Shown: piece by piece, positions 1 to 55,630 of the stretch
Numbering within the stretch: position 1 is the stretch's first letter
Layout of the letters: the number at the start of each line of letters is the position of its first letter
From: Pseudomonadota bacterium
GTDB lineage: Bacteria > Myxococcota_A > UBA9042 > CAIXZC01
Assembly: GCA_043815665.1 (NCBI GenBank)
Contig: JBDRIT010000025.1
Coordinates: 145,490 to 209,489, forward strand
Direction: 5' to 3'
DNA: 64,000 nucleotides
Program-made: the position numbers and the translations under genes
Notes under the pieces: model-generated
Database searches by the model: none
What the model was told of the DNA's origin: nothing
What the model saw: only the letters and a program-made list of their open reading frames with translations

Positions 1-960
1 AAGGGGATCCTCAACACCGAGACCGGGCCGAACAACGTCTTCGCCCGTGAGTTCGAGGGCCGGGTCAAGGTCATCGCGTGCCTCGACGCGCTGCCGAACC
101 TCCTCTACAACGACGCGCTGGAGCTGAGCCTGAGCGGCCGTCTCTGGGACCGGGTGCGCCACGCGGTCTCTGCGGGCCCCTCGGACGCGGTGGTCCTCGT
201 CTGGGGTCCGGAGCGTGACCTCTACACCGCGGCGAGCGAGCTCCAGATCCGCGCGCGGGAGGCCACCATCGGCGTCCCCAACGAGACCCGCCGCGCCCTG
301 GCGGACGGCTCCACGGTCTTCGAGCGGATCCTGCCGGGCCCGGATCGCATGTACCCGGACACAGACCACCCCCCCGTGGCCATCGCCGATGCCCGGGTGG
401 AGAACATCCGGGCCGGCCTCCAGCCCCTCCCCTGGGAGCGGCTCGCTGCCTACGCCGCGCAGGGGCTCCCCGAGCACCTGGGGTGCCTGATGCTCCGGAG
501 CCCCCGTCGTCAGGTGTTCGAGGAGGTCCTCGCCCTGAGCGGCTGCCCGTCCGTGGTCGTCGCAGTGGTTCTCGGCCAGCTCCTCAAGGGCCTGAAGCGG
601 GCCCGGATCCCCGTGGACGCGATCCCCGACGCGCACCTCGAGGTGCTCTTCCGCCTCTTCTCCGCAGGCCGCTTCACCCGGGAGGCCTTCCCAGAGATCC
701 TCACGAGGATGGCCGCCGCACCCGACGCGGCCCCCGGGGCCGTCATCGACGCCCTGCTCCCGCAGCCACCGCCCCCGGAGACGGTGCCCGCGCTGGTACG
801 CGATGCCCTGGCCGATGGCACCTGGCGACGCGATGGCGCCCCGGCCCGGGAGTTCCTGCTGGCCATGGCCGCTGCGATGGACAGGCTCCGGGGGCTGGTC
901 CCGGGCCGCACGGTCGCCGCGCTGGTGCGCGCCACGATCTCGGAAGGGGGTGCCGCATGA
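1..960 (+). CDS. gatE: Glu-tRNA(Gln) amidotransferase subunit E-like protein (GatB/GatE family), 5'-partial; the reading frame is open from window position 1
   Basis: Frame-1 translation is open from nt 1 (KGILNTETGPNNVF...). It contains the RILPGPDRMYPDTD motif typical of the GatB/GatE catalytic core, followed by a helical, YqeY-like tail. Its stop overlaps the start of the following asparaginase-domain gene (ATGA). Confidence 0.6.
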   Translation, partial: KGILNTETGPNNVFAREFEGRVKVIACLDALPNLLYNDALELSLSGRLWDRVRHAVSAGPSDAVVLVWGPERDLYTAASELQIRAREATIGVPNETRRALADGSTVFERILPGPDRMYPDTDHPPVAIADARVENIRAGLQPLPWERLAAYAAQGLPEHLGCLMLRSPRRQVFEEVLALSGCPSVVVAVVLGQLLKGLKRARIPVDAIPDAHLEVLFRLFSAGRFTREAFPEILTRMAAAPDAAPGAVIDALLPQPPPPETVPALVRDALADGTWRRDGAPAREFLLAMAAAMDRLRGLVPGRTVAALVRATISEGGAA

Positions 961-2351
961 CGACGGAACCGAAGGACCGCTTCAAGGGATACCGGGGACC
1001 GGCCAAGGCCACCCTCGAGGAGCACGGCGTGTCCGTGTGGAGCGACGTTGAGGTCCACTCGACCCGCGGGACCTTCCGGGGGATCATCCTGCCCCGCTCG
1101 GAGTCCGCAGATCAGATCCACCTCGTGATGAAGCTCAAGAGCGGCTACAATGTCGGGATCCGCGTGGACACCATCGAGTCGATCGAGGAGCACGGCTACC
1201 GCGAGGCCCACTACAAGATCCCCGAGAAGGCCTTTCCTTACGAGGAATCGAAGCCGAACATCATCCTCTTCGGGACCGGCGGCACCATCGCCAGTCGCCT
1301 GGACTACCGCACCGGCGCAGTGATCCCGGCCTTCTCCCCCGGGGAGCTGTACGGCTCCGTCCCGGAGCTCGCTGACATCTGCAACCTGGAGACGATCAAG
1401 CTCTACGGCGTCTTCTCCGAGAACATGGGGCCGGAGCAGTACATCGGCCTCGCGAAGGCCATCGGGAAGGCCATCGAGGACGGCAAGGACGGCGTGGTCA
1501 TCGGGCACGGCACGGACACCATGCACCACACCGCGGCGATCCTGTCCTTCATGGTCCAGGACTCGCCCATCCCCATCGTCCTCGTCGGGTCCCAGCGGTC
1601 AAGCGACCGTCCCTCGTCGGACGCCGCGCTCAACCTCATCAACGCGACGAAGACCGCCGCAGAGAGCGACATCGCCGAGGTGATGATCTGCATGTTCGGC
1701 CCGACGAGTGATGAGTACTGCCTCCTTCACCGAGGGACCCGGGTGAGGAAGATGCACTCGAGCTACCGCTCCACGTTCCGCACCATCGGCGACATCCCCA
1801 TCGGCATGGTGGACCCGGAGGACATCGTCACGTTTCGGGACGACTACAAGCGCCGCCGCACGGACCGCAACGTCATCCTCAACCCGGTCTATGACGACCG
1901 GGTGTCCATCGTGTACTACTACCCCGGCATGAAGCCGGACATCGTGGACTCGCTGATCAACAACGGCTATCGCGGCATCGTGATCGCAGGCACGGGGCTC
2001 GGGCACATGAACAAGCCCCTCTACAAGGCCCTGCGACGCGCCACGGACGAGGGCGTCCAGGTGTACATGACGGTCCAGACCCTCTGGGGCTACGTCCAGA
2101 TGTACGTCTACGAGACCGGGCGGGAGATGATGGATCTCGGCGTCATCCCTGCGGCGAACATGCTCCCCGAGGTCGCCCTCATGAAGCTCTCCTGGGCCCT
2201 GGCCCAATCCGAAGACCGGGAGGAGATCCGGCGCATCATGCTCACCCCCATCGCGGGGGAGATCACCGAGCGTGAGCCCCACGACGGGTACCTGATCCTC
2301 CAGGGAGGGCTCCCCGAGGTGGACGAGTTCTTCGCCCACCACCGAAAGTAG
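957..2351 (+). CDS. gatD: Glu-tRNA(Gln) amidotransferase subunit D (N-terminal domain plus type I L-asparaginase domain)
   Basis: The ATG at 957 overlaps the gatE stop (ATGA). A ~85-aa N-terminal domain precedes an asparaginase fold with the TGGTIA (ILFGTGGTIASRLD) and HGTDTM motifs. The 483..956 portion of the track ORF is an upstream extension in the gatE region. Confidence 0.75.
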   Translation: MTTEPKDRFKGYRGPAKATLEEHGVSVWSDVEVHSTRGTFRGIILPRSESADQIHLVMKLKSGYNVGIRVDTIESIEEHGYREAHYKIPEKAFPYEESKPNIILFGTGGTIASRLDYRTGAVIPAFSPGELYGSVPELADICNLETIKLYGVFSENMGPEQYIGLAKAIGKAIEDGKDGVVIGHGTDTMHHTAAILSFMVQDSPIPIVLVGSQRSSDRPSSDAALNLINATKTAAESDIAEVMICMFGPTSDEYCLLHRGTRVRKMHSSYRSTFRTIGDIPIGMVDPEDIVTFRDDYKRRRTDRNVILNPVYDDRVSIVYYYPGMKPDIVDSLINNGYRGIVIAGTGLGHMNKPLYKALRRATDEGVQVYMTVQTLWGYVQMYVYETGREMMDLGVIPAANMLPEVALMKLSWALAQSEDREEIRRIMLTPIAGEITEREPHDGYLILQGGLPEVDEFFAHHRK

Positions 2352-2362
2352 GTTTCTCCCCC

Positions 2363-2399
2363 CGCACGAGGGGCTTTCCAGCCCCGATTCCCTCGTGCG
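2363..2399 (+). terminator. Stem-loop downstream of gatD (10-bp perfect stem cgcacgaggg / ccctcgtgcg, 17-nt loop); there is no U-tract
   Basis: Inverted repeat read directly from the sequence 12 nt after the gatD stop codon. Confidence 0.25.
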
Positions 2400-2512
2400 C
2401 GCGCCCGGAAGACCCCTTGCGAAGCCATTGTTGTTCCGCTACCCTCTGGCATCCTGGAATGCGTGTACAGCTTTGGTTTGATGTCCTGATCGATGCGAAA
2501 GGTGGTCTGACA

Positions 2513-8797: not shown

Positions 8798-9148
8798 GTG
8801 ATCTCCGTCGTGATGCCGGCCTATCAACACGGGGAGCGCCTTCCCCGCGCGGTTGAAGACATCCAGAAGCAGACCTTCGTGGACCTGGAGCTGATCGTCG
8901 TCGATGACGGATCGACGGATGGGACCGGGGAGATCCTGGCGGGGGTCGCGGCAGCAGACCGGCGCGTGCGGGTGGTGGCGCTGGAACATGTGGGGCTGCT
9001 GGAGGCGCTGCGGGCGGGGGTCAATGCCGCGCACGGGGACCTCCCCATTCTCGTGGGCATCGGCGTCCGCGCCGCGAAGCCCCTCGTCCGCAGGCACATG
9101 GAGTCCCTCTCGCGGGTCGAGGGCGCGGACTGGATCTTCATCGCCTAG
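8798..9148 (+). CDS. Family 2 glycosyltransferase, N-terminal fragment (116 aa; probable truncated remnant)
   Basis: GTG immediately after the upstream TAA. ISVVMPAYQ...LELIVVDDGSTDGTGEIL is a GT2 N-terminus, but the ORF terminates before the DxD/catalytic region. Confidence 0.4.
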   Translation: MISVVMPAYQHGERLPRAVEDIQKQTFVDLELIVVDDGSTDGTGEILAGVAAADRRVRVVALEHVGLLEALRAGVNAAHGDLPILVGIGVRAAKPLVRRHMESLSRVEGADWIFIA

Positions 9149-21973: not shown

Positions 21974-22176
21974 GGGACACCTCCAGTCACGGGGCCGGCC
22001 CCGAGCATCTTCGACATTCTAGCGTGAAATCGGCCCGGTGTCAGCGGGCCGGCGCGTTCCCTCACCCGCAGCGGAAGGAATCTCTCCTTGCCCGCGTGGG
22101 GAACAAGGTTTAGTTTACTCCGTTGGCTCTATATTGATCAGTTTTGATCGAGTTTGATGAAGTGCCGGAGGAAGAG

Positions 22177-23661
22177 ATGGTCAAGGTCATTCGGGAAGGC
22201 AGTGACGAAGCAAAAGCCCCGAGCCCCGGGGAGTTCGAGGCCATGCTGAAGGAGTCGGAGGACGCAGGATTCGTCCTGCCCGGTGAAATCGTGACCGGCA
22301 CGGTCGTCCGTGTCGGTCGCGAATGGGTGTTCGTGGACCTGGGCGGAAAGAGCGAAGGCGTCATCGCAGTGCAGGAGTTCGCCGGCGAGGAGGAAGGCGA
22401 GATCACGGTGAAGGTCGGCGACGAGGTGGAGGCGACGGTGCTCACCACCCGCGGCGGGGTGCGCCTCTCGGTGAAGCTCCAGAGGTCGGACCAGAACATG
22501 GACGTCCTGCGGGACGCCTTCGAGAGCGAGATCCCCGTGGAGGGTCGGGTCATCGAGACCAACCGCGGCGGCTTCCGGGTGGACATCGGCGAGCAGCGGG
22601 CCTTCTGCCCGGTCTCCCAGATCGACCTCAACTACGTCGAGAACCCGGAGCAGTTCGTAGGGCAGCTCTACCACTTCCGGATCATCGAGTTCAACATCGA
22701 GCAGGGCAACATCGTCGTGTCCCGGCGGATCATCCTGGAGCAGGAGCGCAAGGTCCTGGCCGCGCAGGTCCGTGAGGGCCTCAAGCCCGGACAGATCCTC
22801 ACCGGCGTGGTCAAGAAGCTCATGCCCTTCGGCGCGTTCGTAGACATCGGCGGCCTGGACGGCCTGGTCCACATCTCGGAGATCGCGTGGGAGCGCATCG
22901 AGAATCCCGCCGACTACCTGACCGAAGGGCAGCGCATCCAGGTCAAGGTCCTGAAGTTCGAGGAGGATCGGGACCGGCTGGCGCTGAGCATCAAGGAGGC
23001 GACCCGGGATCCCTGGTCCACGGTGGAGGAGAACTGGCCGGTGGGCTCCTTCATTGACGGGCTGGTGACGCGCCTCGAGCGCTTCGGCGCGTTCGTGCGG
23101 GTGACCCCCGGCGTCGAGGGCCTCGTCCACATCTCGGACATGACCTGGGCCGGCCGGGTCCGGCATCCCTCGGACCTGCTCTCCGAAGGCCAGACCATCA
23201 GAGTGCAGGTCCTCAGCGTGGACATGGCCCAGCGTCGACTCTCCCTGGGGATGAAGCAGGTGGACGGCGATCCATGGTCCGAGGTCGCCGAGCGCTTCCC
23301 CATGGGCAGCATGGTGCAAGGCACCGTGGAGCGCATCGGCGGCGGCGGCGTCTTCATCACCCTCGACATCGGGATCACCGCGTTCCTGCCCGGATCCCTC
23401 GCAGGCTTGAGCCAGGGCGAGCCCCTGGGCGGCACCTTCCGACCCGGCAAGCAGGTGACCCTCAAGGTCAAGGAGATCGACGTCGAGCGGCGCCGGATCA
23501 CCCTCGCCGCCGGGGACGCGGCGGGGGGGGAGGAGCTGCGGGACACCCGCCAGTACCTGGAGCAGCAGGTCAGGGCCGAGCGACAGGACGACGGCCTGGG
23601 CACCTTCGGCAGGCTCCTCGAGCAGGCCCTCAAGAAGGAACCCACTCCCGACAAGGACTGA
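22177..23661 (+). CDS. rpsA: 30S ribosomal protein S1-like protein (multiple S1 RNA-binding domains)
   Basis: ccggaggaagagATG start. Five to six S1 repeats, each with a GxV...G..G(L/F)VHISE pattern. Confidence 0.8.
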   Translation: MVKVIREGSDEAKAPSPGEFEAMLKESEDAGFVLPGEIVTGTVVRVGREWVFVDLGGKSEGVIAVQEFAGEEEGEITVKVGDEVEATVLTTRGGVRLSVKLQRSDQNMDVLRDAFESEIPVEGRVIETNRGGFRVDIGEQRAFCPVSQIDLNYVENPEQFVGQLYHFRIIEFNIEQGNIVVSRRIILEQERKVLAAQVREGLKPGQILTGVVKKLMPFGAFVDIGGLDGLVHISEIAWERIENPADYLTEGQRIQVKVLKFEEDRDRLALSIKEATRDPWSTVEENWPVGSFIDGLVTRLERFGAFVRVTPGVEGLVHISDMTWAGRVRHPSDLLSEGQTIRVQVLSVDMAQRRLSLGMKQVDGDPWSEVAERFPMGSMVQGTVERIGGGGVFITLDIGITAFLPGSLAGLSQGEPLGGTFRPGKQVTLKVKEIDVERRRITLAAGDAAGGEELRDTRQYLEQQVRAERQDDGLGTFGRLLEQALKKEPTPDKD

Positions 23662-35365: not shown

Positions 35366-38300
35366 TCAGAGCTGGAAACTGAAGAGGCTGAGTGTCCATG
35401 GCCACCCAAGGCCAGTGACAACGTAGACCGTGCCGTTGGTTTCTATCGCTAGCTGTGAGCCTCCCAGCCCGTCATCGACCAGGGGCACAGAGATCTCGTT
35501 CCAGGTCGTTCCATCGAAGGAGTGAAGGGTCAAGCCGGAATTGTTGAACATCGAGTGGAGCTTGGATTCGAAGGGCACCGTCGCTGTGCCGCTGTAGCTG
35601 CTGACAGTCGAGCAGATCTGCCACCCCGTCGCTGCGGTATGGCAGTAGGCGGGTGAGTGCTGTAAGGTCGCGACGATCGTCTCTCCTTGAATCGAAACGT
35701 GGTTGTTTGACGAGGTCTGAGCATTTGTAGGGAGGTCGCCGGGGTCTCCCACGACCGACCATGTGTCGTCGGAGAACCGCATAATGATGTTGTGTACCGA
35801 ATCGGCCCACTCAGGATCCGACGCGCCAATTCCAACCTCGCTCGGCTGCTGCGTGAAGAAGACATAGGGCGTCCCGCCGGTCACTGCGAGGTCAAAGAAG
35901 CCCTGCCCGCCATAGGACCACACACCGAGGCCCTCGGGGCCCGAGTAGCCGACCGGCTCCCAGGTGTTCGTGTCGGTGTCGAGCTTCTTGACGCTCAGCC
36001 GCCAGTTGTAACCCGAGCTTCCGTCCTCATTGTGTATGTAGGCGACGTAGAGGTCACCGTTGTCGTCGAAGTCGATCACGCTGCCGCCTGTCGTGCCGGG
36101 TGCGTGATTCGGTAACGCCTCCCAGGTGCTGTCTGAGTACACCCGGATAGCGCCAGAGAAACCGGAGACGTACAGCTTGTTGTCATTGACCTTGGCAGAG
36201 ATTACGTAGCTGAGCGGCATCTCCAAGCCGTCGCTGGCTGACACCCAGGCTTCCCCGTCCCAGCGGCGCACAGAGACCTCTCCCAAGGCTTCCTGTCCCG
36301 CCCACGCCGCCACGGTGACCAGGTACGGCTCGTCATCAAGGAGAGCCAGCTTGAATTTGTACGTGTTCGCCAGGAAATCTGTCGCCAGCTCCGTCCATTC
36401 GGGGATGATGACGTTGACGCAACCGCTCTCAGGATCGCAGGAGTCGGCGGTGCCTGGGTTGCCGTCGTCGCAGCCGCCCTCGGCGACAGGAACCGTTGCC
36501 GAGGGTGTGTGGTTACAGATGGCGCTTTCACCCGATGTGCAACTGTCCAGGGTGCAGGGGTCGTCGTCGTCACAACCGTCGGGCTCCAGGATCTCCACGG
36601 AAGGCGTGCCCGCGCAGGCGCCCTGGTCGTCGCAGACGTCGAGCAAGGTGCAGACATCCAGATCGTCACATGAGGTCTCCCCGGGCATGTCGCAGGCCTC
36701 GCTCTCCTCCAACATTGGGCATTCGACGCCACCGCAGGCAGGCTCCAGAGTGATCGCACGGCTATGAAGCCGGGTCCCCTGGCAGGTCCCGTCGTCGGTC
36801 TCGCATGACGCCCAGTCACCCCAGTCGGAGACCATGCAGTCGATGGGCACGTTGGTGTGGACGCAGCCGGTGGCTTCTTCGCAGGTGTCCGCGGAGCAAG
36901 GATCCTCATCCGTGCAGTCCACCGCGTCACCGGGCACGCACTGGCCCTCTGCGCAGATGTCGATGCCGGTGCAGGCGTTCTCATCGTCGCAGAGCTCTTG
37001 ATTGGGCGTAAAGACGCAGCCCTCCGCGGGGTCGCAGGAGTCATCGGTGCATGGGTTCTCGTCGTCGCAGACCTCGACGCCGGTGGTCATGCACTGCGAG
37101 TCTGCGCAGTGGTCACCGAGGGTGCAGGCGTCGTCGTCGGTGCACTCTGCCGCGTTCGCTGTGAAGACGCACTCGCCCTCCACGCAGACGTCGTCGGTGC
37201 AGACGTTCTCGTCATCGCAGACCTTGGCCATGCCCGACTGGCACGCACCCTCGACGCAGACGTCGCCCAGGGTGCAGGCGTCGGCGTCGGTGCACTCCAG
37301 GACGTTGTTGGCATTGACACACCCCGTCGCTGGATCGCAGGAGTCATCGGTGCAGACGTTCCCGTCGTCGCAGTCCGGGATCCCCGTGGTCACGCAGCTC
37401 CCCTCCTCGCAGTGGTCCCCCGTGGTGCAGGCGTCCGCGTCGGTGCAGGACTCCAGGTTGTTCGCGAAGACGCAGCCCGACGCGGGGTCGCAGGACTCGG
37501 TGGTGCAGACGTTGCCGTCGTCACAGTTCACGAGGGGCGCCAGCGTGAAGCAGCTCCCGCCGCTGCACATCTCGTCCACGGTGCACGCGTCCCCGTCGTC
37601 GCAGGGCAGGGTGTTGAAGTCGTGGACGCAGCCCACCGCGGGGGCGCAGGAGTCGTCGGTGCAGAGGTTCCCGTCGTCGCAGGGCAGCGCGCCCGTGGCC
37701 GCACAGACTTCGTCCTCGCAGTGATCCCCGACGGTGCAGAGGTTCACGTCGGTGCAAGGGTTGTCGTTGGGGGCGTAGACGCAGCCGGACATGGGATCGC
37801 AGGTGTCCGTGGTGCAGACGTTCTCGTCATGGCAGTTGGTCGGCAGGCCATCTTCGCACACCCCGGCGACGCAGATCGTGGCCATGGTGCAGAGATCCCC
37901 GTCATCACAGGCTGCCCCATCGTTGGCCGGCACGAAGGAGCACTCCCCCGTCCCTGGATCGCAGAAGCTCTCCAGGCACTCGGCCCCCAGCCCCTGGGGC
38001 TTCACGCACAGGGTCCAGGTGTAGGGGGTCACCGCGCACTTGGGCGGCAGGGCGATGAGGTCGCATTGGAGGGCTCCAGCGCAGAGGTCCAGGGCCGCGA
38101 TCTCGTCACAGTCCCCATCGACCGTGCAGCCGCACGGGACCTCGAAGCCGACGCAGACCCCGTCGGTGCAGTTGTCGCTGACCGTGCACGGGTCCATGTC
38201 GTTGCAGGGCACGTGGTTGTCCGGGTGGATGCAGCCGTCCACGGGATCGCAGACGTCGTCGGTGCAGAGGTCGCCGTCGTCGCAGTCGATCGCGTCCCCG

Positions 38301-38923
38301 GTGCACACGCCGGCGATGCAGGTGTCGTTCTCCGTGCAGATCGACGCGTCGTCGCATTCGGTCTCCCACACCAGCGCGTGGTCACAGTCACCGTCGGCCC
38401 CGCAAGAGTCGATGGTGCACACGTTGTCGTCGTCGCAGTCCACTGCCGATCCAGCGCAGATCCCGGCCCCGTCGCAGAGGTCGTCCTCGGTGCAGGGATC
38501 CCCGTCGTCGCAGGCCCCGCCATCGAGGAGTTCGCTGACACAGCCCTCGGTGCCCGCGCAGCTGTCCACGGTGCAGGGGTCCCCGTCGTCGCACTCGCCC
38601 GAGACCATGTCCAGGTTGTCCACCTCGCCGTCACAGTCGTTGTCGAGGCCGTCGCAGATCTCGTCCTCGGGGACGCAGGGCGGGGCCTCTGGTGGCAGAT
38701 CCTCCGGCGCCACGTCGAGATCGTCCGTCAGGACGTCCGACGCGTCCGGCATCATCGCGTCGGGTTCCACCTGGTCACCGGACACCAGCTCCGACACGTC
38801 CGGCTCGACCGCCGTGTCGGTGTCCTGGGTGGGTCCCGTGCATCCGAAGACCAGGACACAGGCCAGGAGGACGGCCGGGCGGACGAAAATCAACCCTGGT
38901 TTCATCATTCTCTCGTTCATCAT
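35366..38923 (-). CDS. Lipoprotein with ~35 tandem Myxo-type Cys-rich repeats (C-x-D-D/E-N-x-C-T-x-D-x-C) and a C-terminal beta-propeller-like domain
   Basis: Lipobox LVFGCTG. Repeats such as CDDGDPCTVDSCAGTEGC. C-terminal ~420 aa are Cys-poor. The ATG overlaps the upstream TGA (ATGA). Confidence 0.75.
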   Translation of the reverse strand: MMNERMMKPGLIFVRPAVLLACVLVFGCTGPTQDTDTAVEPDVSELVSGDQVEPDAMMPDASDVLTDDLDVAPEDLPPEAPPCVPEDEICDGLDNDCDGEVDNLDMVSGECDDGDPCTVDSCAGTEGCVSELLDGGACDDGDPCTEDDLCDGAGICAGSAVDCDDDNVCTIDSCGADGDCDHALVWETECDDASICTENDTCIAGVCTGDAIDCDDGDLCTDDVCDPVDGCIHPDNHVPCNDMDPCTVSDNCTDGVCVGFEVPCGCTVDGDCDEIAALDLCAGALQCDLIALPPKCAVTPYTWTLCVKPQGLGAECLESFCDPGTGECSFVPANDGAACDDGDLCTMATICVAGVCEDGLPTNCHDENVCTTDTCDPMSGCVYAPNDNPCTDVNLCTVGDHCEDEVCAATGALPCDDGNLCTDDSCAPAVGCVHDFNTLPCDDGDACTVDEMCSGGSCFTLAPLVNCDDGNVCTTESCDPASGCVFANNLESCTDADACTTGDHCEEGSCVTTGIPDCDDGNVCTDDSCDPATGCVNANNVLECTDADACTLGDVCVEGACQSGMAKVCDDENVCTDDVCVEGECVFTANAAECTDDDACTLGDHCADSQCMTTGVEVCDDENPCTDDSCDPAEGCVFTPNQELCDDENACTGIDICAEGQCVPGDAVDCTDEDPCSADTCEEATGCVHTNVPIDCMVSDWGDWASCETDDGTCQGTRLHSRAITLEPACGGVECPMLEESEACDMPGETSCDDLDVCTLLDVCDDQGACAGTPSVEILEPDGCDDDDPCTLDSCTSGESAICNHTPSATVPVAEGGCDDGNPGTADSCDPESGCVNVIIPEWTELATDFLANTYKFKLALLDDEPYLVTVAAWAGQEALGEVSVRRWDGEAWVSASDGLEMPLSYVISAKVNDNKLYVSGFSGAIRVYSDSTWEALPNHAPGTTGGSVIDFDDNGDLYVAYIHNEDGSSGYNWRLSVKKLDTDTNTWEPVGYSGPEGLGVWSYGGQGFFDLAVTGGTPYVFFTQQPSEVGIGASDPEWADSVHNIIMRFSDDTWSVVGDPGDLPTNAQTSSNNHVSIQGETIVATLQHSPAYCHTAATGWQICSTVSSYSGTATVPFESKLHSMFNNSGLTLHSFDGTTWNEISVPLVDDGLGGSQLAIETNGTVYVVTGLGWPWTLSLFSFQL

Positions 38924-41484
38924 AAGGACCTCGCACAGCGGAAGCCGATGTCACCGGTCTCGTCGTCGTCCTCGGGCACCCCCGCCCGGGTCGACACCGA
39001 GCAGGCCGCCGCAGCGTCGAGATAGCTGCCGCCGCGGACCACTCTCACGCCGTCACAACCCGTCTCCCAGGGTGGGTACCCCAGGGACGGCGCCCCGATG
39101 TAGCTCGGGTGGTAGCAATCAGACACCCACTCGGAGACGTTGCCGCTCATGTCGAAGAGGCCGGCGGCGTTCGCCAGCTTGCCACCGACCTCGTGCTTCG
39201 TCCCGTCGGAGTTGCCTGCGGTCCAGGCCACGTCGCCCAGACAGGCGCTGGCGCTCCCGCAGACGAACGCCGTGGCGCTGCTCCCGCGCAGGGCGAGCTC
39301 CCACTCGGCCTCCGTGGGCAGGCGCGCCCCGATCCGCTGGCAGAACTCCGCCGCCTGGGTCCAGGCCACGCACTCCACGGGGAACGCAGCGCCGGACGGG
39401 TCGCAGGAGGGCGTCAGACCCATGGAGAACTCGAAGTCCTCCTCCGTGACCTCCATCGCGAGGATCTCGAAGGGCTGCACCGCCACCGGGTGACTGGGGT
39501 ACTCGTCGGGATCGGGACAGATGCCTGTGGGGCAGCCCATCCAGAACTGGCCCCCGGGGATCGAGATCCACTCCAGGTCCGGCACGTTCTGCCCGCAGAC
39601 GCCCACGTAGCAGCCGAAGCCGGGATCGCAGTCCCCGCAGGTACCGCCGCACCAGTCGTCGCCGCACTCCTTGCCGCCGCAGATCGGCGTGCAGCAGGCG
39701 CCCTGGAAGCACTTCCCCGTGGCGCAGGGCTCGCCGTCGGTGACGGGCTCGTTGACGCAGCCCGAGGACGGGTCGCAGGAGTCCACGGTGCAGGTGGTGC
39801 CGTCGTCGCAGGCCGCGGACGCGTCCACGTAGTAGCACCCCTCCGTGGGGTCGCAGAGGTTCGTGGTGCACGCGTCGCCGTCGTCGCAGGGCAGGGGATC
39901 CACGCCGCTGCCGCAGCCACCAAGCGCGCAGGTGTCGCCCACGGTGCAGACGTCGCCGTCGTCGCAGGGCACGGTGTTCGGCGCGTGGACACAGCCCGTC
40001 GCCGGCGCGCAGGAGTCGTCGGTGCAGAGGTTCAGGTCGTCACAGTCCGGCGGCGGGCCGCCGACGCAGACGCCGGTGTCACAGACATCGTCCAGGGTGC
40101 AGGCGTTGCCGTCCACGCACTCCGCGCCGCTGGCCGGTGTGTAGAGGCAGCCGGGCCCCGGGTCGCAGAGGTCCGTCGAGCAGGGGTCACCGTCGTCACA
40201 GTCCACGGCCTCCGGGCCGACGCAGATCCCCTCCGAGCAGATGTCCGCGGTGGTGCAGGCGTCCCCGTCGCTGCACGGCGCCGTGTTGAAGACGTGCTGG
40301 CAACCGACGCCGGGCTGGCAGGAGTCCGTGGTGCAGAGGTTGTCGTCCTTGCAGTTCGTCGTGCCGCCGTTGACGCAGATCCCCGCCATGCAGGTCCCCG
40401 TCTTCGTGCAGATCTCCCCGTCCTCGCAGACGCCGCCCTCGTTGATGGCGACCACGCCGCAGTTCCCCGTGGAGCCGTCGCAGTGCGCAGCGACGCAGTC
40501 GGCGTTCGGCCCCTCCGGCGGCTCCGGACAGGACGGCACGGTGAGGGGATTCACCGCGCAGGTAAAGGGGAAGGTCGCGTAGTCACAGAAGAGGATCCCG
40601 TTGCAGAGGTCGCCGTCCTCCAGGACCAGGCAGTCGACGTCGTTCTCGCAGTCGCAGGGGAGCACGAAGCCGACGCATTCCCCCAGCGCGCACTCGTCGT
40701 CCACGGTGCAGGGGCTCCCGTCGTCGCAGGGCTCGAAGTTCGCGGTGAAGGTGCAGCCCGTCGCCGGCTCGCAGGAGTCGTCGGTGCAGAGGTTGCCGTC
40801 GTCGCAGGTCAGGGGCGTCCCTACGCACAGACCTTCGACGCAGAGCTTTGCGACGGTGCAGAGGTCCCCGTCCCAGCAGGGCACCGCGTCCAGGTCCTCG
40901 AAGGCACAGCCGCTCACCTTGTCGCAGCTGTCCTGGGTGCAGGGGTTCCCGTCGTCACAGTCGGTGAAGGTCCCCTGGCAGACGCCGTCCCCGCAGGTGT
41001 CCCCTGCGGTGCAGGCGTTGTCGTCGTCGCAGGCCACGTCGGTGAGGGACGCGAACTGGCATCCCTTCCCGGGCTCACAGGTCCCTACGATGCAGGGGTT
41101 TGGGTTGGCGCAGAGGGACTGATCCGGGTCCTCGGGCGGGTTGTCCACCACGCCGTCGCAGTCGTTGTCCTGGCCGTCGCAGATCTCCGGCTCGGGGACG
41201 CAGACGATCTCCTCGACCACCTCGACGACGTCGGGCTCGACCACCTCCATGACCAGATCGGGTTCCTCGGTGTCCTGGCCCGGGAGGACCTCCAGCACCA
41301 CCGCGTTGGGGTCCTGGATGCAGACCCCATCGGCACCGCAGACCTCTCCCGCGGGGCACTGCGAGTCGTTCAGGCAGGCGGTCCCGTCCCCGGTCAGCAC
41401 CAGGGTCCCCCCGTCGCAGGCGCCCAGGAGGATCACCAGGGCGAGGACCAGGCCCCGCACCGCACCAGTGGCTGTCCTATTCAT
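38920..41484 (-). CDS. Lipoprotein with Myxo-type Cys-rich repeats and a C-terminal formylglycine-generating-enzyme (FGE-sulfatase/SUMF1) family domain
   Basis: ggagaaggagatcggcaATG. Lipobox LVILLGAC. C-terminus WISIPGGQFWMG...RLPTEAEWE...GNVSEWVSD...RVVRGGSY...GFRCARS. The track ORF's upstream 31 codons are discarded. Confidence 0.75.
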   Translation of the reverse strand: MNRTATGAVRGLVLALVILLGACDGGTLVLTGDGTACLNDSQCPAGEVCGADGVCIQDPNAVVLEVLPGQDTEEPDLVMEVVEPDVVEVVEEIVCVPEPEICDGQDNDCDGVVDNPPEDPDQSLCANPNPCIVGTCEPGKGCQFASLTDVACDDDNACTAGDTCGDGVCQGTFTDCDDGNPCTQDSCDKVSGCAFEDLDAVPCWDGDLCTVAKLCVEGLCVGTPLTCDDGNLCTDDSCEPATGCTFTANFEPCDDGSPCTVDDECALGECVGFVLPCDCENDVDCLVLEDGDLCNGILFCDYATFPFTCAVNPLTVPSCPEPPEGPNADCVAAHCDGSTGNCGVVAINEGGVCEDGEICTKTGTCMAGICVNGGTTNCKDDNLCTTDSCQPGVGCQHVFNTAPCSDGDACTTADICSEGICVGPEAVDCDDGDPCSTDLCDPGPGCLYTPASGAECVDGNACTLDDVCDTGVCVGGPPPDCDDLNLCTDDSCAPATGCVHAPNTVPCDDGDVCTVGDTCALGGCGSGVDPLPCDDGDACTTNLCDPTEGCYYVDASAACDDGTTCTVDSCDPSSGCVNEPVTDGEPCATGKCFQGACCTPICGGKECGDDWCGGTCGDCDPGFGCYVGVCGQNVPDLEWISIPGGQFWMGCPTGICPDPDEYPSHPVAVQPFEILAMEVTEEDFEFSMGLTPSCDPSGAAFPVECVAWTQAAEFCQRIGARLPTEAEWELALRGSSATAFVCGSASACLGDVAWTAGNSDGTKHEVGGKLANAAGLFDMSGNVSEWVSDCYHPSYIGAPSLGYPPWETGCDGVRVVRGGSYLDAAAACSVSTRAGVPEDDDETGDIGFRCARSL

Positions 41485-42865
41485 TGCCGATCTCCTTCTC
41501 CGACACCTTGAACTCGACCCGGCGGTTGGCCTTGCGGCCCTCGGGGGTCGTGTTGTCCCCGATGGGGCGCTGGGCACCGAAGCCCTTCGCGTCGAGGCGT
41601 GCCGCGGGGACGCCCTTGCTGACCAGGTAGGTCACCACGGACTTCGCCCGGTCCGACGACAGCGCGAGGTTGCGGTCCGCGTCTCCCACGTTGTCCGTGT
41701 GCCCCTCGACCCGGATCTGATGCACCGCGGGGTGCGCCAGGATCCAGCGGGCGACCTCGTCCAGCTCCTTCATCGATGCGGGCAGGAGCACGTCTCGATT
41801 GGTCTCGAACTGCACCCGCTGCGCGATCTCCAGGAGCTCCTTCGGGGTCTCCACCGGCGGCGGAGGAGGAGGCGGAGGAGGCGGAGGAGGTGGAGGCGGC
41901 GGAGGCGGAGGCGGAGGCGGCGGAGGCGGAGGTGGCGGAGGTGGCGCCGGGGGCTCAAAGGTGCAGCGCTCGAAGCGGAACCCGGAGGTGACACGGAAGG
42001 CCGCCTCACCCATGCCGCCCACGAGGCCGCCGCCCCCCGCGACGTAGACCCGGGCCCAGTCGCCGACGCAGGCGTCGAGGCCCACCTGGCCCTCCATCGC
42101 GGTGCCATCCGTCGAGAGCCCTCCGACCCAGGAGGAGAACACCGTCATCTCGCCGAGGAGCCCGAGCTTGTCCTCCAGGAACCCCTGACGGAGCCCCAGG
42201 CCCATGGCCAGCCCGCTGCCGGCGTCGAAGCCGACGATGGTCTGCGTCTCCAGGAGCCGGACCCCCGCGTTCAGAGCGATCAACGTCGCGGTGGGGAACC
42301 GGTAGTCCAGAACCACCCGGGCCGCCCCCGAGAACCCGCCGGACCCGGAGTAGGTCCCCGCCGTCGCGGTGGGGAAGCCGATGTCCGCGTCCACGCCGAG
42401 GCCGAAGCCCGTCCTCACCCGCGGGAACGCCAGGAATCGGAGGCCGAGGCGCAGATCACCCAGGCCCCAGGCGTCCGCGGTGGGCGCGCCGGTGATCCCA
42501 GAGCTCCCCGCGGCGAAGAGCGTCACCGGGAGGTTCACCCCCACGGAGAGGCGGCGCCATCGGCTGAACGCGGCGAAGAGATCCCCGGTCAGGAGCTGCT
42601 CCACGGGGTGGAAGGTGGCGTCCCTCCCGGTCCTCTGATCATCGATGACCAGGGGATCCCGGGCGTAGGTGACGAAGAAGCCCCCGGAGAACCCGCCACC
42701 CAGCCAGGCGGCGGTCCGGATCATCATCAGATCCCCCGCGTGGGGGGAGGCCTCGAAGTGCTGCACGTTGAGCTTCGGCTCCCCACCCCGGGCGGGACCG
42801 CCGATGACGGCCGCCAGCAGGAGGACGCCGGCCGCTGCTCCGATTCGAATCCTGTTCATGGACAT
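41477..42865 (-). CDS. OmpA-family protein: N-terminal OM beta-barrel-like domain, ~30-residue polyproline linker, C-terminal OmpA peptidoglycan-binding domain
   Basis: Signal peptide MSMNRIRIGAAAGVLLLAAV. C-terminus RVEGHTDNVGDADRNLALSSDRAKSV...GFGAQRPIGDNTTPEGRKANRRVEF. Its stop lies inside an 8-nt overlap with the next gene's start. Confidence 0.8.
   Translation of the reverse strand: MSMNRIRIGAAAGVLLLAAVIGGPARGGEPKLNVQHFEASPHAGDLMMIRTAAWLGGGFSGGFFVTYARDPLVIDDQRTGRDATFHPVEQLLTGDLFAAFSRWRRLSVGVNLPVTLFAAGSSGITGAPTADAWGLGDLRLGLRFLAFPRVRTGFGLGVDADIGFPTATAGTYSGSGGFSGAARVVLDYRFPTATLIALNAGVRLLETQTIVGFDAGSGLAMGLGLRQGFLEDKLGLLGEMTVFSSWVGGLSTDGTAMEGQVGLDACVGDWARVYVAGGGGLVGGMGEAAFRVTSGFRFERCTFEPPAPPPPPPPPPPPPPPPPPPPPPPPPPPPPPPVETPKELLEIAQRVQFETNRDVLLPASMKELDEVARWILAHPAVHQIRVEGHTDNVGDADRNLALSSDRAKSVVTYLVSKGVPAARLDAKGFGAQRPIGDNTTPEGRKANRRVEFKVSEKEIGNE
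41853..41953 (-). repeat. Simple-sequence coding repeat (GGAGGC/GGAGGT)n on the plus strand, encoding ~30 consecutive prolines
   Basis: Read directly from the DNA. The protein run is PPAPPPP...P. Confidence 0.7.
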
Positions 42866-48942: not shown

Positions 48943-51900
48943 TCACGTGACCCGGTCCCCCGATGGCGGGTGGCCGTACCAGGCAGAGTAGACCTGTGAG
49001 AAGTAGCTGGCGCTCATCCCCACCCTTGCGGCCACCTCTGCCGACGTGTCGAATTCCCCGGATCTCAGCATGGAGCGCGCCTCCTCCAGGCGCAGCTGGC
49101 GGACGAGCTGGACCGGCCCGAAGCCTGTGGCCTCCCGACACCGCCGCTGGAGCTGCCGGGGACTCAGGGCCATCTCCCGCGCCAGGGCCGGCACGGAGAA
49201 CTCAGGATCGGCCAGGTGGACCAGCACGATGGAGCGGAACTTCTCCCAGAAGACCCGGCCCGCCGGCGTCACCTTTATCCCCTCCGGTGACTCTGCCCCG
49301 GCCGCAGTCACAGCGGACGTGCCTGCAGCAACGTCGACCCCCGAACGAACGATCTGGTTGCGTACCCGCGAGAGGAGATCCTTGATCCCGAAGGGCTTCG
49401 CCAGGTAGTCATCGGCGACGGCCAGCCCCTCGGCGCTCGCACCGGGGCCGGACCGCGCCGAGATCAGCACGACCCGCACCTCCGCCAGCTGGGGATTCGA
49501 CCGGATCGCCGCCGCAAGCTCCAGGCCGTCCATCCGAGGCATCATGATATCCGACACCACCACCCGGGGCCGCTCCCTGCGAACGAACTCGAGGGCCTCC
49601 CGACCGTCCCTGGCCTGGGCCACCCGACCGAGGCCGGTGAGGTGTGAGGCGAGGTAGGACCGCATGTCCTCGTTGTCCTCCACCACCAGCACGAGGGGCT
49701 CGTCTTCGCCCCGGTCTTCCCCGTCACCCTGGATTTCAGCCGACGGGACAGCCCCACCCGAGGCCTCCGCCTCGAGCTGATCCAGGGTGAGGTGCTGCAC
49801 CCCCATGGGCAGGCGGACCAGGAAGCGGCACCCCGTCCCCTCGGCGTCATCGAATCCGATCTGCCCGCCGTGGAGCTCGACCAGCTCCCGGCAGAGGGAG
49901 AGCCCGATGCCCATTCCCTGGGGTCTCCATCCCTGTCTGGGCACCTGGCAGAAGCGCTCGAAGATCCGCTCCCTCGCGGCGACGGGGATTCCGGGCCCGG
50001 TGTTGAGGACGGTCAGCGTCACGTACGCTGTGCCCCACCCGTCCTCCTCCTGGCCGGGAGCCGGTCCATGGGTCGAGACCAGGACGCGTCCTCCCCGGGG
50101 GGTGTGCTGCAGGGCATTGGTCACGAGATTGGACAGCACCGTTTCCATGAGATCCGCGTCGAAGTACAGCGACAACTCCCCCGGTCCCGTGTCCGCAGCG
50201 AAGTCCAGGCCCCGGTCAGCCGCGTCGACCTCGAAGCGCTCGACGGTTCGCCGCACGAAGGCGGCGAAGTCCTGCCTGCGGGTTCTGAGCCTCATCGCGC
50301 TGCCGTCCAGGAGGGCGACCTTCACGAGCTGTCCGATCAGCTCGTGAAGGCGTGTCGCGTTTCTCCGGATCACGTCCAGGGTTCGAAGCTCCTCGCCGCC
50401 CGTGCCCCCCAGACAGGCCGCCAGATCCTCCAGGGGCCCCAACACCAGGGCGATGGGGGTCTTGAGCTCGTGGGACACGTTCGCGAGGAACCGGGTCTTC
50501 ATCCGGTCGGTCTCTTCCAGCCGCCGGGCCTGGTCTTCCAGGGTCCCTTCCCGTGCCTTCAGCAGGGCGGTTGCCTCCCTGACCTGGACCTCGAGCTCCC
50601 GCTTCCGACGGCGCAGCCGCCGCGTCCGCTGCCACGCCAGGGCGCCGACCAACACCAGGCCGGCGAAGACCAGCAACGCAATGAACATCCAGGTCTCGTT
50701 GAACGCGGGCCTGCGGTGGACGTCCAGCCGCACCGGCTCCCCCCAATCCAGGAGCCCGGCCTGGACCTCGAAGGTGTATCCACCCGGGGGCAGGTTCGTC
50801 CAGGAGGCGACGCGCCCGGCCCCGGGTGCGCTCCAGGCATCGTCGAAGCCCGCCAGCCGGTAGCGGAACCTCACGTCCTCGGGCCAGACCAGCTCCGGGC
50901 AGTGCCAGCGCACGGAGAAGCCCCTCTCCTCGGGCTCGAGGACGATCCGCTCCGGGATGTCGGACGGATCGACGGTCCGATCACCGTACGTGATGGTCTC
51001 GATGGCCGCCCGGGGAGGGGGCGGCGTCGGGAAGCTCTCCGGGCGCACGCCGGAGAGCCCCACCTGCGTCGGATACCAGAGGAGGCCGTCGGGGGATCCC
51101 GCCAGGGCGGGCTGCATGTATCCGTTGGCTTCGCCGGACGCCATGCCGTCACTCTGGTCCAGGGTCAGCGCGAGGACGTGGTCCCGGTCTGAGGAGAAGT
51201 ACGCCTCCAGCACCGCCCGCTCGAGGATCGAGATGCCCCGGTTGCTGCTCAACCAGATCCGTCCGAGCCGATCTTCGGCTACGGAGTGGATGGTGTCGTC
51301 GGGCAGGCCGGCCGCCCGGCTCACGCACACCCTGGGCCCCGCGGTCATCCCATCCTGCCCCAGACCCACCCTGCAGAGGCCGGAGTCGTCGGTGCCCAGC
51401 CAGGCAACACCGCCGCGGTCGACGGTGACGAAGCGGATGCCGACGCTCCCGAGGCCCGGGTCCGGGCTGAAGGACTCCCGCTCCCCCGACCGATACCGCA
51501 CGAGCCCGCGATCCCGGGTCGCGATCAGCACCGACCCGTCAGGGGCCTCGGCGAACATCCGCACGGTGTCGGAGCCCAGGTCACCGCCCCCCGCCACCCG
51601 CCTCGACGTCCAGGAGCCCCCCTGCTCCTCGATGTTCCAGAGACCGCCCGTGATGTTCGAGTACCAGATCTTCCCGGTCGCGTCCTGGTAGCCAGGCCCC
51701 CGCTGCCAGTTCATGTCACCGAGGGGCGGCAGGGGCACGCACCGGTCCCCGTCCACCTGGCAGATCCCGCCGTTCGAAGGAATCCACACGCGCCCGTCCC
51801 GCAGCAGGATGGGTGGATACGCCGTGATCTTCGCTCCCGCGTCGGGCACGCTGGTTCCGGTCACCGCGATGCGCGTGGCCCCTCCGGCCCCGATCCGCAC

Positions 51901-53085
51901 CACCCCGGCGTCTCCTTCAGAGACCCAGAAGTCGCCCGACCCGTCGATGGAGACGGCGCGGACGTTGCCATCCCCGAGGCCGTCAGAATGACCGAGGGAC
52001 AACACCGGTGACGGGCGGAGGCGCAGCAGTCCCTGTCCCTCCGCGGCCACCCACAGATGCCCCATGTCGTCGACGAAGAGCCGGTTGACCCGGTCGATCC
52101 CCCCGGCCAGGCGCACCCCGTCTCTCCAGATCGCCTGGTCCGAGTGCTCCCACAGATGCCCATCAGCAAAGAGCGCGGGGAGCCGCCGGCTGTTGATGGG
52201 GCCCGGCGGTGCAGTGGGCGCCACTGGAGGGACCAGCCGCCCGCCGGACACCCCCCACCAGCGGGTGGACGACCGGGCCAGGACCTCGCCCGAGGGGCCC
52301 TCCAGCACCTGCAGGAAGGGGTCGTCCTCCGCACCCCTCGGCCCGGGCAGCCGCACGACCTCGTCACCGTCCACCCGCAGCAGGCCGTGCGCGCTGGTGA
52401 TGTACACGGCGCCGTCGTCCATCACGAAGGGCCTTCCATGGGGTTCCCGGGCGTACAGCCCCAGGAGGGAAAGCCCCTGCGGCGCTCCCGTCACGGGCAG
52501 ATGATGGAGGATGTCGCTGTTTCCGTTGACCCACAGGTCCCCCGACCGCGTCCCGTCGAGGACCCGCAGCGGGCCGGGGCTGAGCCCCCGCCCGAGCACC
52601 TCCGGCGCGCCGTCGCCGAGCAGGTACACCTCGTCGTACAGGGCGAGCACCCTCCCGCGGCCCTTCCACAGCCAGAGGGTCCGCCCCTCCTGGGGCCGGG
52701 GAAGGCTCCAGGAGGAGAAGCCGTCCGCGGTCATGCGGATGAGCTTGCCGGTCTCGCCCGCGATCCACAGGGCGCCGTCGTCGCCGACCTCGAGGTTGTA
52801 CAAGCGGTTGGTCAGCAGCTCCGGGGTGTCCGCCCGGCGGTGGATCCGGACCTCGAGGCCGTCGAACCGCACCAGGCCGTCGAAGGTGGCCAGCCAGACG
52901 TTGCCGTCAGGCGTCTGGGCCACATCCTCCACGTGGGACAGGGGCAGGCCGTCGTCCAGGGTCCACCGATCGACCAGCCACCCCGATGCTGGAGATCGTG
53001 AGGTCGTCCTTGCTGCCGTCGGGAGCGCTGGGAAGAGCAAGGACAGGGCCATGGCGAAGAGCGCGATTCCCCACCGATGGCCCAT
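48943..53085 (-). CDS. Hybrid two-component system sensor/regulator: periplasmic Reg_prop beta-propeller + Y_Y_Y + TM + HisKA/HATPase + receiver + AraC-type HTH
   Basis: gcaaggagcaggATG. Signal peptide MGHRWGIALFAMALSLLFPALPTAA. SHELKTP H-box, GMGIGLSL G-box, REC (VVSDIMMPRMDG...LAKPF), C-terminal AraC HTH. Confidence 0.85.
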   Translation of the reverse strand: MGHRWGIALFAMALSLLFPALPTAARTTSRSPASGWLVDRWTLDDGLPLSHVEDVAQTPDGNVWLATFDGLVRFDGLEVRIHRRADTPELLTNRLYNLEVGDDGALWIAGETGKLIRMTADGFSSWSLPRPQEGRTLWLWKGRGRVLALYDEVYLLGDGAPEVLGRGLSPGPLRVLDGTRSGDLWVNGNSDILHHLPVTGAPQGLSLLGLYAREPHGRPFVMDDGAVYITSAHGLLRVDGDEVVRLPGPRGAEDDPFLQVLEGPSGEVLARSSTRWWGVSGGRLVPPVAPTAPPGPINSRRLPALFADGHLWEHSDQAIWRDGVRLAGGIDRVNRLFVDDMGHLWVAAEGQGLLRLRPSPVLSLGHSDGLGDGNVRAVSIDGSGDFWVSEGDAGVVRIGAGGATRIAVTGTSVPDAGAKITAYPPILLRDGRVWIPSNGGICQVDGDRCVPLPPLGDMNWQRGPGYQDATGKIWYSNITGGLWNIEEQGGSWTSRRVAGGGDLGSDTVRMFAEAPDGSVLIATRDRGLVRYRSGERESFSPDPGLGSVGIRFVTVDRGGVAWLGTDDSGLCRVGLGQDGMTAGPRVCVSRAAGLPDDTIHSVAEDRLGRIWLSSNRGISILERAVLEAYFSSDRDHVLALTLDQSDGMASGEANGYMQPALAGSPDGLLWYPTQVGLSGVRPESFPTPPPPRAAIETITYGDRTVDPSDIPERIVLEPEERGFSVRWHCPELVWPEDVRFRYRLAGFDDAWSAPGAGRVASWTNLPPGGYTFEVQAGLLDWGEPVRLDVHRRPAFNETWMFIALLVFAGLVLVGALAWQRTRRLRRRKRELEVQVREATALLKAREGTLEDQARRLEETDRMKTRFLANVSHELKTPIALVLGPLEDLAACLGGTGGEELRTLDVIRRNATRLHELIGQLVKVALLDGSAMRLRTRRQDFAAFVRRTVERFEVDAADRGLDFAADTGPGELSLYFDADLMETVLSNLVTNALQHTPRGGRVLVSTHGPAPGQEEDGWGTAYVTLTVLNTGPGIPVAARERIFERFCQVPRQGWRPQGMGIGLSLCRELVELHGGQIGFDDAEGTGCRFLVRLPMGVQHLTLDQLEAEASGGAVPSAEIQGDGEDRGEDEPLVLVVEDNEDMRSYLASHLTGLGRVAQARDGREALEFVRRERPRVVVSDIMMPRMDGLELAAAIRSNPQLAEVRVVLISARSGPGASAEGLAVADDYLAKPFGIKDLLSRVRNQIVRSGVDVAAGTSAVTAAGAESPEGIKVTPAGRVFWEKFRSIVLVHLADPEFSVPALAREMALSPRQLQRRCREATGFGPVQLVRQLRLEEARSMLRSGEFDTSAEVAARVGMSASYFSQVYSAWYGHPPSGDRVT

Positions 53086-55467: not shown

Positions 55468-55630
55468 CAGAAGCTCCCCACCCCGTCAATCGAGCACGCT
55501 CCGGGAGCGGGCTGGCGATGAAACATCTTCGGCCCGTTCATCTCCCACAACGCGAGGGTATGGAGCGCCAAGCAGTTGTCAAGGGCCCCAATGGTGCAGA
55601 TTCCCGGGATGTCGAACCACGGCAGGTTCT

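Follow-up and report, generated by a model that had tools for sequence, protein, structure and literature searches.

A coupled gatE-gatD operon on a bacterial chromosome probably encodes a working GatDE amidotransferase of archaeal origin

A gatE-gatD gene pair of the kind that reviews of 2008 and 2022 describe as archaea-only (PMC2330236, PMC9499178) lies at the start of a 64,000-nucleotide stretch of bacterial DNA (contig JBDRIT010000025.1, positions 145,490 to 209,489; assembly GCA_043815665.1), referred to below as the window. Judged from the sequences of the pair and its relatives, the two genes probably encode a working two-subunit GatDE from a translationally coupled operon in a bacterial chromosome, and belong to a large, old, and tightly conserved bacterial clade, most likely of archaeal origin. 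The most likely function of the pair is the conversion of Glu-tRNA(Gln) to Gln-tRNA(Gln).

On the plus strand, frame 1 of the window reads through 319 codons from its first base before meeting a TGA at 958-960. No start codon for this gatE fragment lies within the window, and the gene must therefore cross the left edge. The ATG of gatD (957-959) overlaps the gatE stop codon as ATGA (957-960), and a Shine-Dalgarno-like run, GGAAGGGGG, is located at 942-950, 5' of that ATG. The second open reading frame (ORF) spans 957-2351 of the same strand (464 amino acids plus stop) and is a complete gatD. The coordinates, the ATGA coupling, and the motifs reported in an earlier note on this DNA (TGGTIAS at residue 107 and HGTDTM at residue 184 of GatD) were accurate. 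The features of the locus are listed below.

1..960, plus strand: gatE, 3' part (codons ~334-652 out of ~652, and the stop); the rest of the gene, 5' of this, is outside the window
1..246, plus strand: C-terminal part of the GatE-specific insertion; boundaries approximate, from alignment to the GatE of contig L001 (a relative, see below) and to 1zq1_C
247..411, plus strand: GatE cradle (catalytic) domain, C-terminal segment; carries the motif GVPNETRR...ERILPGPDRMYPDTDHPP
412..957, plus strand: helical and YqeY-like tail domains of GatE, from GatB_Yqey, the AlphaFold model, and Foldseek
942..960, plus strand: GGAAGGGGG Shine-Dalgarno-like run and ATGA overlap, read directly from the sequence, coupling gatE to gatD
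957..2351, plus strand: complete gatD, from NCBIfam GatD equivalogs and PDB GatD matches
1038..1187, plus strand: GatD N-terminal domain (PF18195 GatD_N, residues 28-77)
1257..2240, plus strand: type I asparaginase-like glutaminase domains of GatD (Pfam Asparaginase, Asparaginase_C)
1275-1286, 1506-1517, and 1746-1757, plus strand: GatD catalytic motifs TGGT, HGTD, and RKMH, respectively
2277..2348, plus strand: conserved C-terminal extension of GatD, REPHDGYLILQGGLPEVDEFFAHHRK, unmatched in both archaeal crystal-structure proteins

A scan for a promoter and a terminator around the operon found neither. A GC-rich hairpin without a U-run (CGCACGAGGGG...CCCTCGTGCG, window 2360-2400) is present 3' of the gatD stop codon. 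Its folding energy was 1.8 standard deviations below that of shuffled controls and no better than that of 12 of 200 shuffles. The hairpin may or may not be a terminator.

The identity of GatD comes from family models, domain architecture, and structural matches. Two NCBIfam GatD equivalogs recognized the protein well above their cut-offs: NF003217 at 514.6 bits (cut-off 310; profile positions 5-416 of 420) and TIGR02153 at 511.4 bits (cut-off 324). On non-GatD models, the protein scored 390.5 bits (generic type I asparaginase) and 146.9 bits (AnsA). The earlier note had described GatD as an N-terminal domain followed by a type I asparaginase domain, and Pfam bears this architecture out. GatD_N (PF18195) covers residues 28-77 (49.6 bits, cut-off 25.7) and stands before the asparaginase domains, of which the N-terminal Asparaginase domain covers residues 101-293 and Asparaginase_C residues 315-428. 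In a PDB search, the GatD subunits of Pyrococcus abyssi (1zq1_A) and Methanothermobacter thermautotrophicus (2d6f_A) matched at 396 and 389 bits, whereas asparaginases reached 155 bits at most.

The GatD glutaminase uses a Thr nucleophile and a Thr-Lys-Asp triad (PMC2330236). The motifs TGGT (residues 107-110), HGTD (184-187), and RKMH (264-267) of the window GatD align with the same motifs in 1zq1_A and 2d6f_A, and all three are invariant in 48 bacterial GatD proteins and in a Sigynarchaeota-labelled GatD. The alignments to 1zq1_A and 2d6f_A stop at query residues 446 and 440, respectively, before the C-terminal extension. The pattern T.RE...GYL..QG...E of this extension is invariant within the bacterial clade, and similar tails occur in P0135 and P0137, two of the nearest neighbours of this clade in the GatD tree described below. 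A GenBank protein, MFH1529653.1 ('MAG: GatD [Pseudomonadota bacterium]', MAG being metagenome-assembled genome), is 100% identical to the window GatD. In other words, the gene already bears the GatD name through automatic annotation.

How complete is GatE? The 319 residues encoded in the window match positions 316-626 of the 630-position GatE model NF003107, scoring 148 bits against a full-length cut-off of 456. The match is limited to the C-terminal half, as would be expected of a gene cut off by the window edge. GatB models reached at most 31.5 bits on the fragment, and Pfam GatB_Yqey matched it at 30.5 bits (cut-off 27). A word-indexed search with the fragment returned mostly partial proteins and missed close relatives. 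Because the window lacks the 5' half of gatE, a full-length stand-in was taken from a relative's contig, L001, whose GatD is 94% identical to that of the window at the protein level. Window positions 1-960 are 88% identical in nucleotides to L001:9045-10004, the L001 gatE has 652 codons, and the gene order shared by the two contigs continues ~7 kb farther downstream of the operon. The L001 GatE scored above the cut-offs of both GatE equivalogs (509.8 bits, cut-off 456; 434.9 bits, cut-off 319.55), while all GatB models stayed below theirs (143.5 bits or less).

Further evidence comes from the GatE-specific insertion domain, whose presence in the full gene had been raised as a check in the earlier note. 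Residues 21-644 of the L001 GatE align with P. abyssi GatE (1zq1_C, 364 bits), whereas GatB chains align only at residues ~97-285, that is, the cradle. Furthermore, the match to Pfam GatB_N is stretched, with 277 profile positions spread across 438 residues. The restriction of GatB chains to the cradle and the stretched GatB_N match indicate that the insertion is present. The P. abyssi insertion aligns with residues ~281-415, and the alignment is free of large gaps. Residue 1 of the window GatE corresponds to residue 334 of the L001 GatE, so the window begins inside this domain. Thus, judged by family scores, PDB matches, and the insertion, the pair is of the GatDE type, and an origin from bacterial AnsA and GatB, which the earlier note had named as a refuting outcome, is rejected.

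The catalytic parts of GatE are also retained. The cradle motif of the window (GVPNETRR...ERILPGPDRMYPDTDHPP) aligns to GVPEETRR...ARMYPETDIPP of P. abyssi, and its columns show little or no variation across 41 GatE sequences and likewise across 48 bacterial GatE proteins. In M. thermautotrophicus GatE, mutagenesis identified the Mg2+ ligands His15, Glu157, and Glu184 as essential (PMC2330236). Their codons lie upstream of the window, and the ligands were mapped on the L001 GatE, where they correspond to H34, E176, and E203; these residues are invariant in the 48 bacterial GatE proteins. The C-terminal domains were examined by structure prediction. The AlphaFold model of the window fragment had a mean pLDDT (predicted local distance difference test score) of 84, and 10-residue blocks over residues 131-310, an all-helical region, averaged 85-98. 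The best PDB matches of this model in Foldseek were GatE (1zq1_C), several GatB chains, YqeY, and a GatB-like GlnRS N-domain. Global TM-scores were low because the fragment is a multi-domain piece. The confident model together with the GatE, GatB, and YqeY fold matches indicates that the helical and tail domains are kept. These domains form the module that binds the D-loop and elbow of tRNA in archaeal GatE and in GatB.

The host of the operon is bacterial, as the earlier note had held. Among the proteins encoded in the window are a ribosomal protein S1 with five domains, a PAS-GGDEF protein, an outer membrane protein beta-barrel, OmpA, M16 peptidases, and a hybrid histidine kinase that carries an AraC domain. 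GC content at third codon positions (GC3) is 0.92 in gatE and 0.93 in gatD, and ranges from 0.84 to 0.95 in neighbouring genes; both genes are fully adapted to the codon usage of the host. The order of gatE-gatD followed by tetratricopeptide repeat (TPR), PAS-GGDEF, and NAGPA genes recurs in four other contigs from three assemblies.

The operon is widespread in bacteria. A scan of species-representative genomes with GatD yielded at least 600 candidate stretches, and 572 of the 600 listed encode a GatD relative, giving at least 572 species-level genomes; taxon detail comes from the 80 best. GatDE is not found only in Archaea, because the window and 79 of these 80 loci are bacterial by label, the remaining one being labelled Thermoplasmatota. 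The labels include Aminicenantes, Krumholzibacteria, Latescibacterota, Zhuqueibacterota, KSB1, Calditrichota, Ignavibacteria/Melioribacteraceae, Marinimicrobia, Fibrobacteraceae, Phycisphaerae, Bradymonadales, and Myxococcota, and several of them look unreliable. Three of the 80 loci are on closed chromosomes (CP070677, CP070631, and OY760517), and others are on contigs of 0.9-2.1 Mb. Two gatE-gatD contigs carry a transfer-messenger RNA (tmRNA) gene next to or near the operon. A protein-cluster search with GatD matched more than 8000 clusters; the top 120 were 73-94% identical, and all organism names attached to them were bacterial. The nearest relatives of both proteins are bacterial, with GatD 72-94% identical to them and 46-48% identical to archaeal GatD. 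A transfer particular to this locus or lineage, which the earlier note had entertained, does not agree with bacterial nearest relatives of both proteins and an operon present in at least 572 species-level genomes.

Among loci with enough DNA, nearly all place gatE immediately upstream of gatD in the same orientation. Two loci (L016 and L023) had no gatE in the upstream DNA covered. No conserved third gene flanked the operon in 81 loci, and a search for mobile vectors among viral contigs gave no match. None of gatCAB, glnS, and asnS was found among the scanned ORFs of the 64-kb window, which also contains no tRNA genes. A tRNA(Gln) gene was found neither in the window nor in the 86 related loci scanned; the loci held only tRNA-Ser, tRNA-Leu, and two tmRNAs.

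A few loci depart from the usual arrangement. On the 5-kb contig labelled Thermoplasmatota (L078:1-4713), gatE is inverted relative to gatD, and a 421-amino-acid ORF with a C-terminal CxxC...CxxC that resembles IS605-type TnpB/OrfB lies between them. The GatD of this contig, 71% identical to that of the window, takes a basal position in the tight bacterial clade. A more divergent bacterial operon (L085:7554-9925) encodes a GatD 57% identical to that of the window and has a tmRNA gene immediately upstream of gatE. The match of its GatE to the family profile ends at position 550 of 630, indicating a tail that is very divergent or reduced. On another contig (L089:6001-8832), a 943-amino-acid ORF, P0132, joins a GatE cradle and insertion to a complete GatD without the helical and tail domains. 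It was seen on one contig, with bacterial-like Ser/Thr kinase and PIN-TRAM neighbours, and may be either a genuine fusion or an artefact of assembly or deletion.

Where did the bacterial genes come from? A search of representatives at 50% identity gave 517 proteins at E <= 1e-30. A GatD tree was built by neighbour-joining from simple distances, rooted with two asparaginases, and assessed with 100 bootstrap replicates. The tight bacterial clade had 93% support. An extended bacterial clade, which adds P0131 from a contig with a tmRNA and a two-component system, had 99% support, and the bacterial clade was nested among archaeal GatD in all 100 replicates. Named archaeal representatives in the tree were Thermococcus, Nitrososphaerota, Bathyarchaeia, Ranarchaeia, and Aenigmarchaeota. 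The bacterial clade and its nearest neighbours formed a joint group with 75% support. These neighbours include the Sigynarchaeota-labelled GatD, whose contig has the same gatE-gatD order, and a GatD whose surroundings are plainly archaeal (S8e, Alba, eIF-2, and proteasome genes). In this form of the phylogenetic check proposed in the earlier note, the bacterial GatD clade falls within archaeal GatD. The inter-domain transfer suggested there survives as archaeal ancestry, which is the best reading of the tree; as a recent local event it fails against the bacterial nearest relatives and host-like codon usage. The bacterial clade most likely goes back to one ancient transfer of a gatE-gatD cassette from an archaeon to a bacterium, after which the cassette would have been inherited and exchanged among phyla.

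Conservation is uneven along the two proteins. It was measured across the 48 bacterial genomes, with P. abyssi versus M. thermautotrophicus as the archaeal comparison pair; the 48 are the best matches to the window GatD, which inflates absolute identities but not the contrast within the same genome pairs. The mean identities were as follows.

GatD: 78.7% in the 48 bacterial genomes (190 of 464 positions invariant), 56% in the archaeal pair
GatE overall: 55.6% in bacteria, 51% in the archaeal pair
GatE cradle: 75% in bacteria, across phyla, 58% in the archaeal pair
GatE insertion: 50% in bacteria, 55% in the archaeal pair
GatE helical and tail domains: 26% in bacteria, 30% in the archaeal pair

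In other words, the bacterial clade holds the catalytic core far tighter than the tRNA-binding periphery. The pattern points to purifying selection on GatD and on the GatE cradle.

How would the enzyme work? A glutamyl-tRNA synthetase of the non-discriminating kind, whose presence is inferred, would charge tRNA(Gln) with Glu. GatE would then use its four parts (cradle, insertion, helical domain, and YqeY-like tail) to bind Glu-tRNA(Gln), and would phosphorylate the gamma-carboxyl group using ATP and Mg2+. A GatD dimer, acting as an asparaginase-type glutaminase, would free ammonia from Gln or Asn. The ammonia would travel through an internal tunnel to GatE, where Gln-tRNA(Gln) would be formed. 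This scheme is borrowed from archaeal GatDE; the bacterial sequences themselves show that all its domains and known catalytic residues are retained.

The closest known system is archaeal GatDE (M. thermautotrophicus 2D6F and P. abyssi 1ZQ1), which has the same two subunits; the bacterial proteins align over their full length with both structures. Archaeal GatD, too, joins an N-terminal domain to a type I asparaginase-like glutaminase in which the Thr nucleophile and the Thr-Lys-Asp triad occur. Archaeal GatE is likewise built from a cradle that bears a His/Glu/Glu Mg2+ site, the insertion, the helical domain, and the YqeY-like tail. However, the host of the window pair is bacterial, and identity to the archaeal enzyme is 46% for GatD and 35-37% for GatE. 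The bacterial genes form an overlapping gatE-gatD operon, whereas gatD stands alone in the one clearly archaeal contig checked. Bacterial GatD also carries a conserved C-terminal extension of ~20 residues, and the catalytic parts of the bacterial clade are much more conserved than the tRNA-binding parts. The tRNA(Gln) of the host would be expected to have the bacterial first base pair instead of A1-U72.

Bacterial GatCAB carries out the same overall reaction, also by coupling a tRNA-dependent kinase/amidotransferase to a glutaminase via an ammonia tunnel. Its GatB is a paralogue of GatE and has the cradle, helical, and YqeY-like tail domains in common with it. However, the glutaminase of GatCAB is GatA, a member of the amidase family aided by GatC, and not an asparaginase homologue. 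GatB lacks the insertion domain, and GatB models score the L001 GatE below their cut-offs. Unlike archaeal GatDE, GatCAB makes Asn-tRNA(Asn) as well. Type I L-asparaginases (Escherichia coli AnsA; Thermococcus kodakarensis 5OT0) are homologous to GatD over residues ~100-440 and have the same catalytic motifs, but they lack GatD_N and a GatE partner. Their PDB scores (155 bits or less, against 396 for GatD) and the AnsA model score (146.9 bits, against 514.6 for the GatD model) set them apart.

Several points weigh against a working GatDE of archaeal origin. The first base pair of bacterial tRNA(Gln) is normally U1-A72. Archaeal GatDE reads the A1-U72 pair of tRNA(Gln) (PMC9499178, PMC2330236). 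With these two pairs unlike, either the recognition or the tRNA must differ. The insertion and the tail, which bind the tRNA, are the poorly conserved parts of bacterial GatE (50% and 26%), and the choice of close matches raises the identities of all parts. Pfam GAD gave no match at E <= 0.1 on the insertion of the L001 GatE. The 5' half of the organism's own gatE is outside the window, and its intactness is judged from relatives. The neighbour-joining tree uses simple distances, and its root may be wrongly placed if the outgroup branch is long, which leaves the direction of transfer short of proof.

The poor conservation of the tRNA-binding parts bears on the proposal that the GatDE fold was kept for another substrate, such as Asp-tRNA(Asn), another misacylated tRNA, or a non-tRNA carboxylate, with Gln-tRNA(Gln) supplied by GatCAB or GlnRS. 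GatCAB and/or GlnRS are normal in bacteria, so a second glutamyl-tRNA amidotransferase would look redundant. The steep fall from GatD (79%) and the cradle (75%) to the insertion (50%) and tail (26%) is not seen between the two archaeal enzymes (56, 58, 55, and 30%), and in two sister lineages the tail is weak or absent (L085, with a GatE matched to 550 of 630, and the tail-less fusion P0132). However, all tRNA-binding domains of GatE are present in the clade and the tail folds confidently in the model, neither the Mg2+ ligands of the kinase nor the triad of the glutaminase vary, no third conserved operon gene hints at another pathway, and both proteins score above equivalog cut-offs (GatE via the L001 relative). 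A change of substrate is therefore unlikely, if worth bearing in mind. The repurposed asparaginase/GatB pair of the earlier note is likewise unlikely, because all catalytic residues and tRNA-binding domains of GatDE are kept. A different history, in which GatDE was present in the last common ancestor, was kept here, and was lost in other bacteria, would agree with earlier phylogenetic work that, as cited in PMC9499178, placed GatDE in the last universal common ancestor, and with a bacterial clade that is monophyletic at 99% and roughly tracks phylum groupings. It is quite unlikely: in the outgroup-rooted tree the clade lies 14 nodes deep within archaeal diversity, bacterial GatD occupies very few 50%-identity clusters whereas archaeal-type GatD fills most of the 150 representatives listed, and the bacterial spread is patchy (phyla of the Fibrobacterota-Chlorobiota-Bacteroidota (FCB) group and scattered others).

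Could this bacterium or its close kin have taken gatDE directly from an archaeon in recent times? GatDE is universal in archaea and archaea-only in reviews (PMC9499178, PMC2330236), and the family models were built on archaeal sequences. Yet the best GatD matches are all bacterial, falling from 94% to 72% identity over several hundred species while archaeal ones remain at 46-48%, GC3 equals that of host genes, and the closest archaeal-labelled sequences fall outside the bacterial clade at 99% bootstrap. A recent direct transfer is contradicted by these bacterial nearest relatives and the host-like GC3, and is very improbable. It is scarcely credible that archaeal DNA was mis-assembled or mis-binned into a bacterial contig. 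The window does come from a contig of a MAG, the 80 best loci include one with a Thermoplasmatota label, and several labels look unreliable; but the gene order recurs in the four other contigs from three assemblies, base composition is uniform, the operon is found inside closed bacterial chromosomes and contigs of 0.9-2.1 Mb, and tmRNA genes are located next to or near it. Independent assemblies and closed genomes contradict a chimeric assembly. A working bacterial GatDE derived from an old archaeal cassette thus remains the preferred reading.

A more far-reaching possibility, which is tentative, is that across a wide range of bacteria (many FCB-group phyla, Aminicenantes, some Myxococcota, Bradymonadales, and Phycisphaerae) GatDE displaced GatCAB and became the sole route to Gln-tRNA(Gln). 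One ancient transfer would have brought in the cassette from a donor that was possibly Asgard-like, and the fast-evolving insertion and tail would have been refitted to bacterial tRNA(Gln) in each lineage. If this is true, the status of GatDE as an 'archaeal signature' is overturned, and these lineages are a natural experiment on the choice of amidotransferase.

The co-evolution of GatDE with archaeal tRNA(Gln) has been used to explain why archaea never acquired GlnRS (PMC9499178, PMC2330236). A full-text literature search found no paper on bacterial GatDE, although databases annotate the genes, and a Caldithrix genome paper and an asparaginase database paper are silent on it. The wide and conserved bacterial distribution contradicts the textbook archaea-only statement and appears to be undescribed. 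A bacterial clade of at least 572 species would mean that GatDE works, or was made to work, with a bacterial translation apparatus. How GatE reads bacterial tRNA(Gln), whether GatDE and GatCAB divide the work as in archaea, and which lineage donated the cassette are now testable. The distribution also has a consequence for annotation and for domain-level marker sets that count GatD and GatE as archaeal.

Other features of the window concern its organism and the neighbours of the operon. The S1 protein (window 22144-23661) is short, with about 494-505 amino acids and five S1 domains. Six close relatives are 82-100% identical to it, any other protein is at most 65% identical, and it is ~40% identical to S1 of Desulfuromonas, Bdellovibrio, or Binatia. 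Because its S1 is so distant from other S1 proteins, the organism belongs to a deep, poorly sampled lineage, and its 'Pseudomonadota' label is doubtful. In close relatives (88% nucleotide identity across gatE-gatD), a 2.1-kb rtcB and archease pair lies on the opposite strand between gatD and the TPR gene (L001:11405-13499). Neither gene was found in the 64 kb of the window, which has only 46 unrelated bases (2352-2397) at this place. In a Melioribacteraceae locus (L051), rtcB is ~0.7 kb upstream of gatE.

Farther downstream, a family 2 glycosyltransferase gene (window 8798-9148) has ~116 codons compared with 334 amino acids in the L001 relative, and ~665 bp of L001 (20234-20897) are missing from this region of the window. 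The gene may be truncated or inactive. Two very large Cys-rich proteins with Dicty_CTDC repeats are encoded at 35366-41577 and 53824-59414, and one of them ends in a formylglycine-generating enzyme (FGE)-sulfatase domain. Three paralogous arylsulfotransferase (ASST) genes adjoin the gene of the hybrid histidine kinase with the AraC domain (48943-53103).

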